The notes beneath the pieces were generated by a model that was not told where the DNA came from, did not search any database, and saw nothing but the letters and a program-made list of their open reading frames with translations. Source: a virus. Taken from it: 16,884 bases of DNA. The stretch is from UHGV virus genome UHGV-0068632, one strand, 5' to 3'. The first letter of the stretch is position 1; each line of letters starts with the position of its first letter. Positions 597-15,023 of the stretch are shown one piece after another. Position numbers and translations under genes: made by a program.

Positions 597-619
597 GGGG
601 CCGTTGGCCCCTTTCTTTT
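597..619 (+). terminator. Candidate intrinsic terminator or attenuator after the tail tube gene
   Basis: GGGGCC-gtt-GGCCCC hairpin at 597-611 followed by TTTCTTTT at 612-619, starting 19 nt after the stop codon at 576-578. Confidence 0.5.
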
Positions 620-1309
620 ATGGTGAAAACTATGATTCATGTTCGAACAGGACAATTTGCGGCGGTGGTAGACGGCAGGAGGTATGCGTTTAATCCCTGC
701 TTCGCTGCAATGGCTAAGATCGGCAGTGACAGCGAACTGGTCGAATACTTCGCAACCATCCACGGTGGCAAATATCCATCACGATTGCCAGCAGATCCAG
801 ACCTTCGCAATCGCATTCTGGCGCGGTGTTATGGTGAGTTAGTGCAAACGTCAATACACATCCTGAAATGTTGCTCAGACAACGAAATAGGCCCGTTATT
901 GGGTGAATGTAGGTTTACTCCTTCCGGCAAATTGCGACTAAAACCCGGACTGATGCCGACCAGTGACGTTATCACGCTGGCGCAACATTGCATGTACCAC
1001 GGTTTAATCGGTGACGGGCCAGAAGAAGACGCCGGAGAGATCCGGGAAGGGGAATATAAGCCGACTTTTAACGTGCTGGAATTCGTTTATTCTGCCGTAG
1101 CTCACCTGGGGTTATCAGAATCAGAAGCATGGAATATGACAATGACCGGATATAGAGCCGCCGTACGCGCTAAAACGCCGCCAGACGAAAGAAACGAGAG
1201 AAGCAAGCCAAACGTTCACATAAATAAACGTGCTTATGACGAGCAAATGGAGGCCGCTAAAAAGGCACTAGAAAGAATGAAAAATCGAGAGCAAGAAAAA
1301 GCCCGGTAG
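620..1309 (+). CDS. Putative tail assembly chaperone (gene in the lambda G/GT position), 229 aa
   Basis: ORF located between the tail tube gene and the tape measure gene. The ATG at 620 abuts the terminator T-tract and has no clear RBS; an alternative ATG at 632 is preceded by ggtga at 5 nt spacing. Function assigned by synteny only. No slippery frameshift site identified. Confidence 0.45.
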   Translation: MVKTMIHVRTGQFAAVVDGRRYAFNPCFAAMAKIGSDSELVEYFATIHGGKYPSRLPADPDLRNRILARCYGELVQTSIHILKCCSDNEIGPLLGECRFTPSGKLRLKPGLMPTSDVITLAQHCMYHGLIGDGPEEDAGEIREGEYKPTFNVLEFVYSAVAHLGLSESEAWNMTMTGYRAAVRAKTPPDERNERSKPNVHINKRAYDEQMEAAKKALERMKNREQEKAR

Positions 1310-2584: not shown

Positions 2585-4924
2585 ATGGCTACCAGTGTAG
2601 GTACAATTTATTACGAAGTTGATGCAAAAACTGGTCAACTTCTCGTTGCACAACGACAGGCAGACCAGGCCTTTGACCGTATAGAGCGCGGCGCAAAACA
2701 GGCTGACCGCCAGGTAAACACCCTGAAAACATCCATCAAGGCACTGACCAGGGTTATCCATTTGCTAATTGCTGCCGAGGCTGTGCGCCAATTTATGGAT
2801 ATGGCGGAGCAAGCCAAAATGCTTCGCGTAAAAATCAAATTGCTTACAGGTGAAGCGGAGGCAACGGAACGGGTTTTCAACAGACTGAAAGAAATATCAA
2901 AAGAAACAGGCCAAAGCCTCAAGGATACTGGTGCCCTGTGGCAAGGTCTTGCTATATCGCTAAAAAACACATCCGCCACAGAAGGCCAGGTGCTCAACCT
3001 GGTCAGCACGCTGCAAAAACTTGGTAACTTGGGCGGCGTGTCTGCGGAACAACTATCAAACTCCATGCTTCAGTTCCGCCAGGCTATTGATGCTGGCGTG
3101 TTGCAGGCGGAAGAGTTCAACTCAATACGTGATAACACCCCAACAATCATACAGGAAATGGCCCGACAGATGGGGTTATCTATGGGGCAGTTCCGCGCCG
3201 AAATGCTGGACGGCAAGATCACGGCTGAAAGGATGCTCAACGCGATCCAGGCGGCTACGCAGGAAACAAACGAGAAGTTTGCACAGTTACCGCGCACGTC
3301 CGGTATGGCTTTTAATGAGCTTAAAGTCGAGGTGATGGGACTTGTCGAACAACTTGATGATCTTTTCGGCATATCAGATGGCGTTGTGTCAGCTATCGAC
3401 TTAATAACTGGTGGCGTTGAGGGATTAGGTAAAGGCGCAAAATTCGCCGCAACCTGTTTCAATACACTAAAAACGGCTGGCAGTGAGTTTATCGACATGT
3501 TTGATGATGTTGCTGTTAAAGCTGGTGAGGTGGCGGAAGAGATTATCAGGATGGTAACGCCAATCAAAGCGCTAATGGATGGCTACAAATGGATGAAGGA
3601 GATCATTGATAAACGCAAGAATGAGCTAAACAGCAACAACGAAAAGAAATTCGGCCCTACAGTCGGTAAGGTCATGACGTTTGCAAATGACATCAAAAAT
3701 GCGACCGCCGCTTATGATGAGTTTATGCAGAAACAGGGTGAGGCTGATGACGGCAAGATCACCGGATTCGATCAGCCAGTTGGCAAGCCGAAAAAAGGGA
3801 AAAAAGACAAGAAATCTGAAGCTGATCGGCTTGGTGATGAAGGCATAAAAGTATCCGACCAGTACAACAAAGACGCCGCAGCTATGCGCAAAGCGTTAGA
3901 GAACGGCAAGGCCATTGATGCTGCATTCGCCCAGGGTAAAATCACTCTCCTTGAGTACCGCGCCGCGCAAAAAGGGATAGGTAAGGAACTGAAGGAAGAA
4001 TTAGCGCAAATTCCGGTAGATGAATTGCGTGATAAATGGGCGCAAATAGTAAGCCCGATGGATCAGCTTAAAGGTGAGGTTGACCCTATCCAGCAGGTGC
4101 AGAATGAATGGGCCGTCCGTAAGCAAATGCTTATCGACCTGGGCGTTACTGAAGCGCAACAGAAACAGGAACTGTTAGCCTATGAGCAACAGATCCGTGA
4201 TCTGAAGTGGGAACAGTGGCAGGCACAAAGCGATACAAACGGCCTTATCGGTGATTGCGTTAATGGCCTAAAAGGTGGTATGAGCAATGCACTTGTTGGC
4301 CTGTTAAATGGTACTCAATCATTGAGTGATGTTTTTGCTAACTTAGGCAGCAATATCCTCGGGAATATCGGTAACAGGCTTTCAGACATAGCTGCAAACT
4401 GGATAGCAGATCAGATCATGATGGAAACGCAAAGCAAAGCGACTCAGGCAAGTACCACGGCGGGCGCGGTAGCGGCGCAAGGCCAGATTGCTGCGGCGGC
4501 GGCCCCGGCGGCGGCGGCAACAGCGGCGTCAACTGGCGGCGCATGGGCGGCGGCTGGTTCTGCGGCACTCACTGCGATCATGTCGCTGGCTACGTCAATT
4601 TTCGGCGGCGGTCGCTTTAATGGTGGTAGCGTTATTGGTGGCAATATGTACCGCGTAGGGGAACACAACAGGCCGGAGCTATTCCAGACATCTAACGGAA
4701 ATCAATATATGATCCCAGGCGAGAATGGCAGGGTTATTCCTGGGCGTGATATTGGCGGTGGCGGCGGCATTAGTATGCCTGTCAATATCAACATTCAGAC
4801 CACAAACGGATTTAGCGACGAAGACAGTCGCAGACTTGAGCAAACAATGGAACGTGTAGCAATGAAGATGATAACAAGGGAATCACAAAGACCTGGAGGA
4901 ATATTGCAACCGCGCCGCAAATAA
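2585..4924 (+). CDS. Tail tape measure protein, 779 aa
   Basis: Large ORF in the expected position, with RBS gagg 8 nt upstream. Has the mostly helical N-terminal region and the Ala/Gly-rich hydrophobic segment (QASTTAGAVAAQGQIAAAAAPAAAATAAS...) typical of tape measure proteins. Followed by gpM/L/K/I/J homologues. Confidence 0.9.
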   Translation: MATSVGTIYYEVDAKTGQLLVAQRQADQAFDRIERGAKQADRQVNTLKTSIKALTRVIHLLIAAEAVRQFMDMAEQAKMLRVKIKLLTGEAEATERVFNRLKEISKETGQSLKDTGALWQGLAISLKNTSATEGQVLNLVSTLQKLGNLGGVSAEQLSNSMLQFRQAIDAGVLQAEEFNSIRDNTPTIIQEMARQMGLSMGQFRAEMLDGKITAERMLNAIQAATQETNEKFAQLPRTSGMAFNELKVEVMGLVEQLDDLFGISDGVVSAIDLITGGVEGLGKGAKFAATCFNTLKTAGSEFIDMFDDVAVKAGEVAEEIIRMVTPIKALMDGYKWMKEIIDKRKNELNSNNEKKFGPTVGKVMTFANDIKNATAAYDEFMQKQGEADDGKITGFDQPVGKPKKGKKDKKSEADRLGDEGIKVSDQYNKDAAAMRKALENGKAIDAAFAQGKITLLEYRAAQKGIGKELKEELAQIPVDELRDKWAQIVSPMDQLKGEVDPIQQVQNEWAVRKQMLIDLGVTEAQQKQELLAYEQQIRDLKWEQWQAQSDTNGLIGDCVNGLKGGMSNALVGLLNGTQSLSDVFANLGSNILGNIGNRLSDIAANWIADQIMMETQSKATQASTTAGAVAAQGQIAAAAAPAAAATAASTGGAWAAAGSAALTAIMSLATSIFGGGRFNGGSVIGGNMYRVGEHNRPELFQTSNGNQYMIPGENGRVIPGRDIGGGGGISMPVNINIQTTNGFSDEDSRRLEQTMERVAMKMITRESQRPGGILQPRRK

Positions 4925-4927
4925 ACG

Positions 4928-4958
4928 AAACCCCGGTACAATGCCGGGGTTATCTTTT
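4928..4958. terminator. Bidirectional hairpin terminator
   Basis: CCCCGG-tacaatg-CCGGGG at 4931-4949 followed by TTATCTTTT. Lies between the tape measure stop (4924) and the stop of the minus-strand ORF at 4957. Confidence 0.6.
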
Positions 4959-5744: not shown

Positions 5745-5830
5745 GTGAAGCCATTTTGTAAACTAGCTATAATCATTGTGATGAAGATCTCATTTTTTGC
5801 GTAGAATCGCGTAAAAGTATATACAAAATG
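5745..5830. promoter_or_regulatory. Divergent promoter/operator region carrying the shared motif pair
   Basis: gtgaagccattttgta at 5745-5760 is identical over 16 bp to 2528-2543. A perfect TATAAT lies at 5768-5773 and a GATC at 5786-5789. The motif recurs in reverse orientation as tatacaaaatg at 5820-5830. Confidence 0.4.
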
Positions 5831-5848
5831 TAAATTATAGGGGGATTT

Positions 5849-6215: not shown

Positions 6216-6401
6216 ATGTATGCTATTTGTGTAGTGGACCGCACGGGCGCTTTTACATTGTTTGACGACTATGAAATCAACGATCTTACTGTAAAGGCTG
6301 ATAATGGCGAGATCTGGTATCTTCATGATGTTGGTGACGGGTATGTCGGATGCAGATCGAGAGAGGGTAGGGAAGTTTTATTTTTACTTGATGGCGTATA
6401 A
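6216..6401 (+). CDS. Small hypothetical protein, 61 aa, between the gpM-like and gpL-like genes
   Basis: RBS ggaggtg about 6 nt upstream of the ATG at 6216. The track start at 6183 has no RBS. No counterpart in the lambda M-L junction, so probably accessory. Confidence 0.55.
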   Translation: MYAICVVDRTGAFTLFDDYEINDLTVKADNGEIWYLHDVGDGYVGCRSREGREVLFLLDGV

Positions 6402-6406
6402 ACACG

Positions 6407-6433
6407 ACCCCGCGCGAAGCGGGGTTATTATTA
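6407..6433. terminator. Bidirectional hairpin terminator
   Basis: ACCCCGC-gcgaa-GCGGGGT at 6407-6425 followed by TATTATTATT. The same 19-mer occurs as an exact reverse complement at 14606-14624. Confidence 0.6.
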
Positions 6434-7628: not shown

Positions 7629-7739
7629 CACCTCCGCGCCATTTTGTTAACTGTGCTTCCGTTTGAGTAAAATATACATATTGTATAAACCGCGATCAAT
7701 CCATTTTGGTATGATTTAGCGTGACGCAGATCACAAAAT
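7629..7739. promoter_or_regulatory. Divergent promoter/operator region carrying the shared motif family
   Basis: Motif variants at 7629-7641 (ccattttgttaac), about 7669-7681 (catattgtataaa) and 7701-7715 (ccattttggtatgat, containing the extended -10-like TGGTATGAT). agatcacaaaat at 7728-7739 is identical to 15004-15015. Confidence 0.4.
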
Positions 7740-7753
7740 CAGAAGGTGAGAAA

Positions 7754-8458
7754 ATGCGCAATATACCTACAGAGATGATTATTGATTCCGTGGACGCTGG
7801 TGTGGGCGCGGTGATTGACTTGTTCGAACTGGACTTGTCGCCCCTGGGTGGCGAGGTTATCCGCTTCCATTCCGGCGCGAATGGCTATTACGGCCCGGTT
7901 ATCTGGAAGGGATTAACTTACAACAGCTACCCGATCGAGGCTACTGGCTTCGAAATGAAAAACGAGGGCGTTTATTCGCGGCCTCAAATGGTTGTAGCCA
8001 ATATCGGCGGGCTAATCACAGGGATGAATAACGACTTCAACGACCTGCGAGGAATGAAGGTTACGCGCCGCCAGGTGGAAGTAAAATACCTGGACGCCGT
8101 TAACTTCCCAAACGGCAATCCAGACGCAGATCCATCTATTGAGGCTGTATCTTTTTACGTCGTGGAGGCCATGAGCGAGGAAACAGCGGATCAGGTGCAA
8201 TATGAGCTGTCAACGCCAATTGATGCTGATAAGGCCGTTATCCCTGGGCGCACCATCCTTGCTGACGTTTGCCAGTGGCAATACAGAGGCGACGGGTGTA
8301 TGTACGCTGGCGGACCAGTAGCAAACGATAAAGACGAGCCGACAAGCGATCCTAAAGCCGACAGATGCAGCCACCGTCTAAGCGGTTGTCGTTTGCGTTT
8401 CCCGCGTCCAAATCCGTTACCGATTTCCTGTTTCCCTGGTTCCAGTAAGGTAGGTTAA
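7754..8458 (+). CDS. Minor tail protein, lambda gpL-like, about 234 aa
   Basis: Extended match to my recollection of lambda gpL: TGFE, SRPQ, GMxxDxxxL, VTRRQV, FLDAVNFPNGN, AVxPGRxxLAxxCxWxYRGDxC, CSHRLSGCRLRF. The ATG at 7754 follows gaaggtgag; the track's start at 7721 is a GTG inside the conserved leader motif. Confidence 0.9.
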   Translation: MRNIPTEMIIDSVDAGVGAVIDLFELDLSPLGGEVIRFHSGANGYYGPVIWKGLTYNSYPIEATGFEMKNEGVYSRPQMVVANIGGLITGMNNDFNDLRGMKVTRRQVEVKYLDAVNFPNGNPDADPSIEAVSFYVVEAMSEETADQVQYELSTPIDADKAVIPGRTILADVCQWQYRGDGCMYAGGPVANDKDEPTSDPKADRCSHRLSGCRLRFPRPNPLPISCFPGSSKVG

Positions 8459-12600: not shown

Positions 12601-14599
12601 AGCAAGAGCGGAGGCAATGGAGACAATTACCGCCGAAATCGACACGATGGATAAAAACATCAAAGGTGAGATTGCGCGCGTAGATACTGCCATTGCCAAT
12701 GAGAGCCAGGCAAGGGCTGATGCCATCAGTGAAGTTAGCGCAAACATTGACGCACTTGATAGTAAAACAGATGCCAGTGTTAATCGTCTTGATCAAGCTA
12801 TCGCAGATGAGGCCAGCGCACGCGCACAGGCTATCAGCAATGTCAATGCGAGCATGACAAATCTTGATAACAAGGTTACAAGCAACGTTTCTAGACTTGA
12901 TCAGGCAATAGCTGACGAATCAAGCGCAAGAGCAGAAGCCGATGATCAGTTAATAGCAAAAAGCGAAAAACTTGATGGTGATCTCGCTATGGCAAGGGCA
13001 AGCCTACAAAACGCTTCGCTTGCTCTCATCAATAATACATTGTCTCAGACAAAGACAAGGCGCACTCTCACAGCGGAGTTCAAACGCGGACAAAGTGAAA
13101 CTAAAGCACAAATTGACCGTATTGATAATGTCATTACTGACGAAAAACAGGCAACAGCGGAAGCGTTTGAAACTATCACAGCAGAAATGAACACGATGGA
13201 CTCAAACATTAAAGGAGAAATATCACGATTAGATAAAGTGATCGCGACTGAAACGCAAGCAAGATCTGAAGCTATAAGTAGTGTTAATGCAAGCATAAAG
13301 ACGCTAGAAAGCGACACTGAAGCCAGCGTTAACCGTCTTGATCAGGCAGTTGCTGACGAGGCCAGCGCCCGCGCACAAGCTATCAGCGGAGTAAATGCAA
13401 GCATCAGCACGCTTGATAGCAAGGTTACAAGCAATGTGACCCGTATCGACAAAGCTATTGCAGATGAGACGCAGGCCCGCACAGACGCAATAAGCAACCT
13501 TAACTCATCGCTTACCAGTACGATTAATTCTAAAGTATCTGAAGTATCAACAGCACTTTCTACGCATGAAGCATCAAGCGCGGAAAAATTCAGCCAGATC
13601 TCAGCGTCTTTCGAAGCTGTAAACTCAAGCATCACGGAATGGTCGCAGACCATGACAACGGCGGACGAGGCATTATCAACCAAAATTGATCAGTTAACAG
13701 TAACCGTTAATGGGAACACAACAGCGATCGAGACGACATCGAAAGCGTTAACCGACTTCAAAGGTAATGTTGATGCGTCATGGTCAATCAAGATTGCTAC
13801 TGATAACAACGGCATGAAATACGCTACAGGTATGTCGCTTGGCCTGACTGGTAGCGGGACTAACGTTCAATCGCAGTGTATTTTCCTCGTTGACCGCTTC
13901 GTGTTAATGACCGCAGCAAACGGCACATATACAACGCCTTTCTATGTGTCTAATGGTGCAATGTATGTGAAAGAAGCGTTTATTAAAAACGCATCAATAG
14001 GTACAGCTAAAATTGCAGATGCAGCCATTACTATGGCTAAAATTGTTAATGAAATAAAATCATCAAACTATGTTGCTGGTTCTAAAGGTTGGAGGATAAC
14101 ACAAAGCGGATCATCAGAATTTAACGATGTTGTGGTAAGGGGCGAAATCCATGCTAATAGCGGTAAATTCAAAGGAACTGTAGAAGCTACATCCTTTGTT
14201 GGTGATGTCGCATCTACTAACGTTATACCGCAATCATCATTCCCTGGGACAAGTACAAGCGGATCTCGATCTGTTACGAAGACGTATAAAGATTCATCAT
14301 CAAGCTCGCTTTCGAAAACAGTTTTCGTAATGATTCCTTACCATCTTACTTATTATACTTATTCAGGATCATCAACAATAAAAGTAACAATTGATATTAA
14401 TGGCAATAGCAAAACATATAACGTAGTAAGGGCGGCATCATCGCCTCAATTCGGATTTACGGTATCACATTGCGTAACTGGGATTACTGCTCAAACAGTT
14501 ACGATAAAAATAACAGAGGAATACACCAACACCGGAACATCAGCAGAAAGAAGGCCAGGTCTTGCACTTGTTACAAGAAGCTCAGGATCATGGTCATAA
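9680..14599 (+). CDS. Tail tip / host specificity protein, lambda gpJ-like, 1639 aa
   Basis: Collinear similarity to lambda J over the N-terminal roughly 800 aa (for example SEGPIYGPV, YHLRGLIVDIPDNYDPEKRTYSG, LSQYCDQLVDDGYGGLEPRMTLNAY, FGCTSRGQAYRAGKWLIETA). Followed by FN3-like segments, a roughly 480-aa repetitive coiled-coil region and a distinct C-terminal domain. Confidence 0.95.
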   Translation: MSSGGGKAKTPTLINDNLYHKQFYRVLDIISEGPIYGPVNTNAPLNSVMLNDTPVTDANGNTSIPGISVAWRNGTIDQSPINGFNAIESTVIVNAQVKHDTPIIRTVSDPNVNRVRLNIGVDSLVQSDEQSNQHNTSVMMMIDVKPSSSSTWTLVKDVTIGPGKISGEYLEAHIINAPDEKPFDIRVRRVTADSTSDLLQNDTRWSSYSEIIDDNLSYPHTAVAGAVIDHDQYADTPTRTYHLRGLIVDIPDNYDPEKRTYSGLWLGGFKQAYTNNPAWIFRYLVKNERFGLARHAGYIDVDDGALYTLSQYCDQLVDDGYGGLEPRMTLNAYITEQMSARDLLDNIAGMFRGIALWDGQRLTVMIDAPQDPIATITNANVVDGAFTRSSIARAECYNAVIVSWTDPENGWEQSKEYVADDELIARDGYNETTLEAFGCTSRGQAYRAGKWLIETAKREPSKFTFKMARDAIHFTPGDIIEILDNNRAGARLGGRIVANNGKVITVDKVDANYIAAGDTISLLDSDGKFKKHQITGVSGNKITLAAAPSWIRNGTVFAVSTESAKPVLCRITSVAETENNSVYTIEAAQHDPNKQAVVDEGAIFEVNNDTLNHFRVPNIENLKVVNIGSETIQCRATWETQTTTHRMTFEIRIYNADGAVVKSYETTKYSYDFYGIDAGVYSLGVRGRNDTGMKGAESIVDLVIGAPAAPIGVNWVPGVFQATVYPISKTTLTTDTAYEFYYAGENQITDPAKITTAAQFTGRGYQWTFGGMNTGHTYYVYVRTRNAFGVSDFVEASGKPTENFDEISDYVTKDVMNSEQFKEMVGDIKDLGDRTDIIESATQDLKTATDTLSGITEGLRTDTDNLITETESIKADTDSLKKDTEDLYKKVEENADEIGKHEVRIDSLEVSSENVDNELAQTKASLQNASLALINNSLAQTNTRRTLTAQIKNVDYETKAQIDRIDNVIVSEKEARAEAMETITAEIDTMDKNIKGEIARVDTAIANESQARADAISEVSANIDALDSKTDASVNRLDQAIADEASARAQAISNVNASMTNLDNKVTSNVSRLDQAIADESSARAEADDQLIAKSEKLDGDLAMARASLQNASLALINNTLSQTKTRRTLTAEFKRGQSETKAQIDRIDNVITDEKQATAEAFETITAEMNTMDSNIKGEISRLDKVIATETQARSEAISSVNASIKTLESDTEASVNRLDQAVADEASARAQAISGVNASISTLDSKVTSNVTRIDKAIADETQARTDAISNLNSSLTSTINSKVSEVSTALSTHEASSAEKFSQISASFEAVNSSITEWSQTMTTADEALSTKIDQLTVTVNGNTTAIETTSKALTDFKGNVDASWSIKIATDNNGMKYATGMSLGLTGSGTNVQSQCIFLVDRFVLMTAANGTYTTPFYVSNGAMYVKEAFIKNASIGTAKIADAAITMAKIVNEIKSSNYVAGSKGWRITQSGSSEFNDVVVRGEIHANSGKFKGTVEATSFVGDVASTNVIPQSSFPGTSTSGSRSVTKTYKDSSSSSLSKTVFVMIPYHLTYYTYSGSSTIKVTIDINGNSKTYNVVRAASSPQFGFTVSHCVTGITAQTVTIKITEEYTNTGTSAERRPGLALVTRSSGSWS
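12449..13546 (+). repeat. In-frame tandem duplication (2 x 549 bp, 183 aa each) inside the gpJ-like gene
   Basis: Unit 1 begins gcaagcctacaaaacgcatcgcttgctctt at 12449 and unit 2 begins gcaagcctacaaaacgcttcgcttgctctc at 12998. The proteins ASLQNASLALINNSLAQTNTRRTLTAQ... and ASLQNASLALINNTLSQTKTRRTLTAE... are collinear. Each unit holds three shorter repeats of about 36 aa of the RLDQAIADEASARAQAIS type. Confidence 0.8.
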
Positions 14600-14606
14600 A
14601 AAATAA

Positions 14607-14632
14607 CCCCGCTTCGCGCGGGGTTTTCTTTT
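14607..14632. terminator. Bidirectional intrinsic terminator between the J-like gene and the lipoprotein gene
   Basis: CCCCGC-ttcgc-GCGGGG at 14607-14623 followed by TTTTCTTTT. Lies 8 nt after the J-like stop codon, and the minus-strand lipoprotein stop overlaps the T-tract. Confidence 0.65.
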
Positions 14633-14879
14633 AGTAGTTAGCTACACAATTCGACGGGCTACCTATGCGGCGCATGTTGTGATCGAGTTCATGACACCAT
14701 TGACCAGTATATGGCAGTTTTTCAGTGTCATATACAAGATGACCATTAGCATCATAGACGATTTCTTGTGGAATCACTCCGCTATTTGGCAGGTTATGCA
14801 ATGCAGCTTCTTTGTCAACAGCGCAACCAGTAAGAGCAACAGCCGCAGCGAATAAAACCACTTTGAACATGTTTTTCAT
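14631..14879 (-). CDS. Small outer-membrane lipoprotein, 82 aa, in the Cor/Llp position (candidate receptor-blocking superinfection exclusion protein)
   Basis: N-terminus MKNMFKVVLFAAAVALTGC has a signal peptide and lipobox L-T-G-C with Ala at +2. RBS gagga 6-7 nt upstream. Encoded convergently just downstream of the receptor-binding J-like gene, where T1/phi80-type Cor and T5 Llp genes are found. Assigned by position and type, not by sequence homology. Confidence 0.7.
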   Translation of the reverse strand: MKNMFKVVLFAAAVALTGCAVDKEAALHNLPNSGVIPQEIVYDANGHLVYDTEKLPYTGQWCHELDHNMRRIGSPSNCVANY

Positions 14880-14975
14880 TTTTTAATCCTCGTTCTTGTT
14901 AGCTCATCCGGTTCATCCGGTGGCTTAAATATCCGACAAAACCACATTTCGTATATTGATATAAATCAATAAATA

Positions 14976-15023
14976 CATTTTGTATAAGTCAAAAATGTAA
15001 CATAGATCACAAAATGGTAGAAT
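14976..15023 (+). promoter_or_regulatory. Candidate promoter and conserved leader for the tail fibre gene
   Basis: cattttgtataa at 14976-14987, catagatcacaaaat at 15001-15015 (GATC at 15005-15008), and the extended -10-like TGGTAGAAT at 15015-15023, about 34 nt upstream of the ATG at 15057. Confidence 0.45.

Follow-up and report, generated by a model that had tools for sequence, protein, structure and literature searches.

A conserved terminator-type hairpin between the tail tube gene and a DUF6246 gene in an mEp021-group coliphage

In the viral genome UHGV-0068632, a G+C-rich hairpin with a run of T separates the tail tube gene from the gene that follows it, which raises the question of whether this element sets the amounts of the two products by partial termination or serves the tube transcript in some other way, and from which codon the downstream gene is translated. 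An earlier note on this DNA had read the locus as attenuation, with high expression of the tube protein and partial read-through into a gene in the position of a tail assembly chaperone. We analysed the whole 16,884-nt stretch, hereafter the window, together with related loci. The first 2.6 kb of the window shares 96.5% identity with Escherichia phage MagusPhagus and 82-85% with phages mEp021, mEp010, mEp554, mEp044, mEp515 and mEp013, and the window belongs to a temperate coliphage of the mEp021 group (mEpimmI), whose members are Nus-dependent, non-lambdoid and temperate (PMC11893012).

On the + strand, the tube gene is followed by a DUF6246/phrog_791 gene, the tape measure gene, homologues of lambda M, L, K, I and J and a fibre gene, an order that is broken by blocks of reverse-strand accessory genes. 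The tail tube (major tail) protein gene (102-578, 158 aa) was assigned through PF06199 (E = 3e-8) and phrog_853 'major tail protein' (E = 1e-47), its orthologues in relatives carry tail tube or major tail protein annotation, and its reading frame ends with the tandem stop TAATAA (576-581). The product of the DUF6246 gene (632-1309, + strand, 225 aa) matches PF19759 with E = 6e-55 and 186 bits, compared with a gathering cut-off of 27, as well as phrog_791; counted from an ATG at 620, the reading frame (620-1309) would encode 229 aa. The tape measure protein gene (2585-4924, + strand; PF20155, E = 4e-48; phrog_1538) is in turn followed by a hairpin at 4929-4951. Between DUF6246 and tape measure, ORF and domain searches placed two reverse-strand accessory genes (1335-2324), one of 106 aa (1335-1655), to which these searches assigned no family, and one of 219 aa (1665-2324) with a type VI secretion VasI domain (PF11319, E = 2e-14). 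In mEp021, mEp010 and MagusPhagus this slot is filled by another, single gene, and it thus constitutes a variable cargo site. As for the tube protein, its 158 aa in the E. coli phages compare with about 244 aa in relatives from other genera, and the tube protein of relative L112, the one in which the domain was checked, matches the Ig-like Big_2 family; judged from these sequences, the extension seems to have been either lost in the E. coli lineage or gained by the other genera.

The hairpin begins 19 nt past the tube stop and stands directly ahead of the DUF6246 gene. Its stem pairs GGGGCC (597-602) with GGCCCC (606-611) across the loop GTT (GUU in the RNA, 603-605), and the T-tract TTTCTTTT (612-619; UUUCUUUU in the RNA), with seven U in eight positions, follows on the + strand only. 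A pattern scan classed the site as terminator-like with 6/6 G-C pairs, and the hairpin folds at -12.6 kcal/mol (z = -2.8), a stability reached by one of 200 shuffles. These are the sequence features of an intrinsic terminator, namely a G+C-rich hairpin, a U-rich tract immediately 3' of it and a position downstream of a coding region, and 597-619 is accordingly best described as a predicted intrinsic (Rho-independent) terminator-type signal that marks the 3' end of the tube cistron. The orthologous site is already annotated in relatives, as the predicted terminator TERM_8 (score 100, TransTermHP-style) in mEp021 (MH706966.1) and as the ARNold terminator T12 in mEp010 (PP180001.1), and the element is of an ordinary, known kind. 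TERM_8 and T12 share the GGGGCC/GGCCCC stem and the position between the major tail gene and DUF6246 with the window, whereas their loop is ATTT instead of GTT and their tract reads TTTATTTTT. Both are predictions, the terminators tested experimentally in this group being t1, t2 and t5 (PMC11893012). The hairpin and T-tract that the earlier note had placed at 597-619, between the tube stop and the next gene, are therefore present, and its reading of them as an intrinsic-terminator-type element is borne out by the six G-C pairs, the seven U in eight positions, and the terminator predictions that it had proposed as a check, both by the pattern scan and at the orthologous sites.

Folding of the region 570-660 gave no structure that competes with the terminator hairpin, only weak independent stems besides it, and an Rfam scan of the window returned no family match, so that a regulated attenuator of the leader or riboswitch type was rejected. 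A promoter scan of the gap between the two genes (579-631) found none. Because this gap of 53 nt is filled by the hairpin and the Shine-Dalgarno sequence, it leaves DUF6246 no room for a promoter of its own.

Two ATG codons compete for the start of DUF6246. ATG620 (620-622) has no Shine-Dalgarno sequence of its own and is preceded only by the T-tract, while the in-frame ATG632 (632-634) stands 5 nt behind GGTGA (GGUGA, 622-626), just as the earlier note had described. At the position equivalent to 620, 33 of 59 E. coli-group loci have the codon AGG, 21 have AAG, four have ATG and one has TAG; ATG620 is thus a rare G-to-T variant inside the Shine-Dalgarno region, which in relatives reads AGGGTGA, AAGGTGA or AGGGGGA. 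The string ATGATTCATGTTCG that begins at 632 is nearly invariant (13/14 aligned sequences, with one T-to-C change in L008), the gene callers PGAP, PHANOTATE and Pharokka start the gene at the equivalent of 632 (PGAP in ten genomes, to which the mEp010 and MagusPhagus records can be added), and DUF6246 homologues measure 225-227 aa. ATG620 was rejected as the true start since the codon is missing from 55 of the 59 close relatives, and on this comparative evidence ATG632, the earlier note's choice, is the true start. Fixing the start at 632 is a gain in annotation. In the mEp021 record, gp62 starts inside the terminator, yet the annotated ribosome-binding site TGGTG serves the 632-type ATG, and by the same comparison this longer start is probably wrong. 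The ATG620 variant in the window furthermore adds a weak second hairpin over the Shine-Dalgarno sequence and AUG632; over 63 nt that include the terminator hairpin, the folding energy is -15.6 kcal/mol in the window versus -13.4 kcal/mol in relatives, and the extra hairpin may slightly lower translation. A start elsewhere in the window also merits attention: the L-like minor tail gene (7721-8458) is listed from GTG 7721, and since an in-frame ATG at 7754 is preceded by the Shine-Dalgarno sequence AAGGTGAG and matches to PHROG profiles set in at residues 8-12, ATG 7754 is the likelier start of that gene.

Conservation of the hairpin was assessed on 13 E. coli phage or prophage loci, 16 loci from other genera, 80 IMG/VR contigs and two metagenomic contigs, counting those in which a tube-like gene precedes DUF6246. 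The MAFFT alignments, of the intergenic region as well as of loop-centred hairpins, followed sequence and left the Atlantibacter-type and Pusillimonas hairpins out of register; because structural register was lacking, pairs were counted outward from the loop by a script, with control windows as the null. All 107 related loci carry a hairpin with at least five G-C pairs (five or six) within 60 nt before the DUF6246 ATG, compared with 4.9% of 1070 control windows taken from these loci, and the distance from the stem end to the ATG is 10-22 nt (106 loci). The 25 distinct hairpins among these loci have loops that vary freely (GTT, ATTT, ATCT, AAGC, GAAA, TTCG, TCGC and others), while their stems change only by compensatory or G-U changes. 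The GGGGCC/GGCCCC stem, for example, alternates with GGGGCT/AGCCCC, with a U-G intermediate between the two in L070; a stem pair is inserted in AAGGGGGCT/AGCCCCCTT; Enterobacter and Pseudocitrobacter have GGGAGG/CCTCCC, and Pusillimonas has the flipped stem AGCCCC/GGGGCT. The G-U intermediates (L070 and L048) can pair in the + strand RNA only, and the T-tract is likewise confined to the + strand, which argues that the selected object is an RNA hairpin in the tube transcript. Selection on the hairpin as an RNA structure is thus shown by covariation.

The U-tract behaves differently from the stem. Seven of the eight positions after the stem are T in 54 of 106 loci (the E. coli-group type), and T is less frequent in other genera. 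Atlantibacter-type relatives keep the hairpin with the tail UUUGAGGUUUU, in which the Shine-Dalgarno sequence lies; L113 keeps it with GCUUAGGG in place of a U-tract, and L112 has a weak hairpin only. Since the hairpin is retained in loci without a good U-tract, termination as such is not the function conserved across the family, and the comparison points to the hairpin itself, for instance as RNA 3'-end protection, as what has been conserved.

The signal at 597 is one of several. A perfect stem of six G-C pairs with a T-rich tail is found at five sites of the window (597, 1301, 4931, 6408 and 14607), which amounts to 10 hits over both strands against 0.08 +/- 0.36 in dinucleotide shuffles, roughly 100-fold over chance. 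The sites at 597, 1301, 4931 and 14607 lie at or just after the stops of the + strand tube, DUF6246, tape measure and J genes, and the one at 6408 comes after an uncharacterised ORF of 72 aa whose stop is at 6401. The hairpin GCCCGG-TAGAT-CCGGGC (1301-1317) overlaps the DUF6246 stop (1307-1309) and is bidirectional, with T-rich tails on both strands, so that it also ends the convergent reverse-strand genes; its equivalent is annotated as TERM_9 in mEp021 and T13/T14 in mEp010. In mEp021, the same layout of stop, hairpin, U-tract, Shine-Dalgarno sequence and ATG recurs at 19979-20028 (L110) after the gene for a DUF6260 virion protein of 350 aa, probably the major capsid protein, with TERM_7 reading CCCCGGCG-CAAT-GCCGGGGA followed by eight T. 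Taken together, the hairpins behind the tube gene and the capsid candidate suggest that the signal follows the two most abundant structural genes. With at least five such hairpins in the tail operon and another behind the capsid candidate of mEp021, the 597 hairpin is not special to the tube/DUF6246 junction.

A few further observations concern these intergenic regions. TERM_7 of mEp021 has, once again, a spurious ATG right after its T-tract (TTTTGTATGTGGAG). The terminator-like hairpins at 6400-6432, after the M-like block, and at 14599-14631, after the J-like gene, form a mutual 33-nt inverted repeat (88% complementary) that brackets 8.2 kb with the L, K, I and J homologues and a block of reverse-strand genes. 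Just after the J-like gene and its hairpin lies a reverse-strand lipoprotein gene (14631-14879, phrog_12984), the position at which this phage group carries superinfection-exclusion lipoproteins (PMC11893012). Besides, each of the gaps in which a reverse-strand block gives way again to + strand tail genes contains a motif, CCATTTTGTATAA / TTATACAAAATG, that occurs in both orientations (2504-2547, 5751-5763, 5819-5831, 7639-7688, 7707-7715, 14944-14987 and 15015-23), with an inverted pair and an 8-nt spacer at 2504-2547 and the extended -10-like sequences TGGTATGAT and TGGTAGAAT close to motif sites. With 93% identity to mEp021, mEp010 and MagusPhagus, the region 2440-2590 is more conserved than the genes, whereas the overall count of the motif at up to three mismatches is not above chance (13 vs 8.1). 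On sequence grounds, the gaps that bear the motif may be internal promoters or operators.

What, then, does the hairpin behind the tube gene do? To an explanation by leaky termination combined with 3'-end protection after the tube cistron we would give an even chance. Part of the polymerases arriving from the head and tube genes would release in the U-tract (around 617-620), leaving a tube message with a protective hairpin at its 3' end and without the ribosome-binding site of the next gene. Polymerases that read through would make the DUF6246 mRNA, to be translated from AUG632 with the help of the Shine-Dalgarno sequence GGUGA (622-626), and the outcome would be more tube protein than DUF6246 protein. 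As there is no room for a promoter upstream and the gene is closed downstream by the hairpin at 1301-1317, expression of DUF6246 should depend wholly on read-through, which lends support to the differential expression that the earlier note had envisaged. Actual termination, its efficiency and its effect on the protein ratio are points that we infer.

Comparable arrangements are known from other phages. In T7, the major capsid gene 10A is directly followed by the terminator T-phi, which 'terminates incompletely' (PMC6068830). It resembles the present site in that a terminator directly follows the most abundant structural gene and downstream structural genes are reached by read-through, and differs in that its target is T7 RNA polymerase, the gene ahead of it encodes capsid and not tube protein, and its function has been established by experiment. 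In SPP1, the late structural gene clusters are bounded by predicted Rho-independent stem-loop terminators in intergenic positions (PMC6316719). Stem-loop terminators thus delimit late structural clusters there too, although the host is Gram-positive. To our knowledge, no Q-type antitermination is known for SPP1.

Several points weaken an account in which attenuation is the whole story. Gp37 of mEp021 is a lambda-type Q antiterminator (PF03589, E = 1e-29), and that phage has a tR'-like terminator ahead of its lysis genes. Lambda Q makes late polymerases resistant to intrinsic terminators. Given the presence of Q in the group and its Nus dependence, late polymerases may largely ignore the signal at 597, and termination during lytic growth may be small. 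The degraded U-tracts of relatives and the at least five similar hairpins in the tail operon, with essential tail genes situated beyond five of them, count against attenuation as well. A 6-bp stem with a triloop, moreover, is at the short end for efficient terminators.

These observations bring forward a serious rival, to which we attach a lower, though still considerable, probability, well short of even: the hairpin might be solely a stabiliser of the mRNA 3' end. Late transcription, putatively antiterminated by Q here, would pass it nearly completely, and after endonucleolytic cleavage or rare termination the hairpin would block 3' exonucleases, so that the tube segment outlives the RNA downstream. 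The Q gene (PF03589) and tR'-like terminator of mEp021 and the Nus dependence of the group (PMC11893012) favour such a role, as do the conservation of the hairpin where the U-tract is degraded or missing and the location of essential tail genes downstream of five such hairpins; in addition, a raised stability of the upstream mRNA is a known effect of terminator hairpins (PMC11696848). A pure exonuclease barrier, however, has no need of a U-tract, and the tract is well kept in the E. coli group (7/8 U in 54 loci), while the conserved motifs that resemble promoters or operators, ahead of the tape measure gene and of tail genes further on, could make read-through unnecessary for those genes. Leaky termination and stabilisation are not mutually exclusive.

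An insulating role is unlikely in our estimation. The hairpin would stop unmodified polymerases, such as those reading through from upstream or arriving from promoters of accessory genes, from expressing prophage tail genes in the lysogenic or pre-late state and would be irrelevant under Q. Such a role would suit a tail operon broken up by reverse-strand accessory genes that have hairpins on either side, and Castellaniella and Eoetvoesiella loci have a reverse-strand gene exactly at the tube/DUF6246 junction, which marks the junction as an insertion slot. Nevertheless, neither in the window nor in any of the enterobacterial relatives does the junction contain an accessory gene or a promoter, the hairpin at 597 is unidirectional, and the recurrence of the layout after the capsid candidate of mEp021 fits better with a role related to abundance.

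Still less probable, and in our view very unlikely, is a translational element for DUF6246 that uncouples its ribosome-binding site from tube translation or tunes initiation. The stem does end at a short and fairly fixed distance before the Shine-Dalgarno sequence and ATG (10-13 or 17-22 nt), and the ATG620 variant in the window does add its weak hairpin over the Shine-Dalgarno sequence and AUG632. The distance to the ATG, however, splits into two classes, the Shine-Dalgarno sequence and start codon never lie inside the hairpin, and the layout is that of a terminator and recurs after genes whose downstream neighbour is on the other strand. Finally, the perfect DNA palindrome and the use of the junction as an insertion slot in some relatives might suggest a palindrome that arose by chance, the remnant of a lost accessory gene, or a site that acts in the DNA, for instance by binding a protein; this most improbable reading is disfavoured by the 10 hits at five sites where 0.08 were expected, by conservation with compensatory changes in 107/107 loci, and by the G-U intermediates and one-sided T-tract that fit + strand RNA and not DNA.

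The identity of the DUF6246 product was considered as well. In the distant relatives L112, L113 and L028, DUF6246 alone occupies the interval between the tube and tape measure genes, a position that makes it a candidate tail assembly chaperone, and the label rests mainly on this position. Gp62 of mEp021 is annotated in its record as 'hypothetical protein' and not as 'virion structural protein', in a phage for which the authors mapped 16 virion proteins by mass spectrometry. The order of tube, putative non-virion gene and tape measure, together with the M, L, K, I and J homologues, recalls lambda V-G-T-H; the V-G gap of lambda, in contrast, is 15 nt and has no hairpin, compared with 53 nt and a terminator hairpin in the window. 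Lambda produces G and GT at 30:1 by a -1 frameshift that is widely conserved among long-tailed phages (PMC5009743), which makes the absence of such a frameshift here worth noting: instead of G/GT, the window has a single ORF of 225 aa, which contains no slippery site, is accompanied by no T-like ORF and shows no similarity to G or T that our comparisons could detect. As lambda G itself is abundant relative to GT, it is also not self-evident that low levels of a chaperone would be needed.

The search for recoding signals was negative. No slippery heptamer of the form X XXY YYZ occurs in the DUF6246 gene of the window or of the E. coli relatives, and the alternative frames of the window gene are full of stops, in agreement with the earlier note, which had described a single 229-aa ORF in which it could identify no G/T-type slippery site. 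Elsewhere, heptamers are sporadic and non-conserved, with extensions of at most 17 aa, and frameshifting near the A-runs at 1259, 1280 and 1296 was rejected because the extensions would be only 5-13 aa. No T-like overlapping ORF was found in 12 loci, in which alternative-frame extensions past the stop span 0-59 aa; the exceptions are L026 and L028, where the open alternative frame is the tape measure ORF itself. In these Castellaniella and Eoetvoesiella prophages (L026 3315-6182 and L028 3557-6175), the open tape measure frame already begins 11-81 codons ahead of the DUF6246 stop, so that the two genes overlap or abut, an arrangement that is not conserved elsewhere and is probably an effect of the G+C-rich genomes.

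Comparisons beyond the phage group gave a similar picture. The DUF6246 family (PF19759) has 377 cluster representatives, and the best 150 of the 377 are all single proteins, most of them of about 190-235 aa. An hhalign comparison of DUF6246 with lambda G and T gave probabilities below 1%, the Pfam families Phage_TAC_11 (E = 0.14) and Phage_TAC_6 (E = 0.24) stayed below their cut-offs, and neither the protein itself nor a profile of 99 sequences retrieved anything meaningful among the PDB sequences. A first structural model built from 15 sequences, of low confidence (pLDDT 65), found no fold match in the PDB. With a later model of high confidence (pLDDT 93), the significant hits in BFVD were unnamed homologues, and several 'tail assembly chaperone' entries appeared at non-significant scores (E = 0.18-0.6, probability 0.18-0.69). 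A literature search for DUF6246 brought up one unrelated mention. We put forward only tentatively, and with more doubt than belief, that DUF6246 may represent a new family of tail assembly chaperones, made as a single product of 200-230 aa without a G/GT frameshift, the dose of which would be set at the RNA level by the enclosing signals, that is, the conserved upstream hairpin/terminator and the downstream terminator, rather than by recoding.

The hairpin at 597 is a well-conserved, covarying example of a common phage habit, the placement of a terminator-type hairpin after the most abundant structural genes. Because the phage group also has Q antitermination, it offers a convenient system in which to ask whether such hairpins act by termination or by RNA 3'-end protection. 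The larger point, and the only part with some, if modest, novelty, concerns the gene and not the hairpin: in siphophage tail operons, the place of the chaperone is taken by a family of 377 clusters without the widely conserved frameshift.
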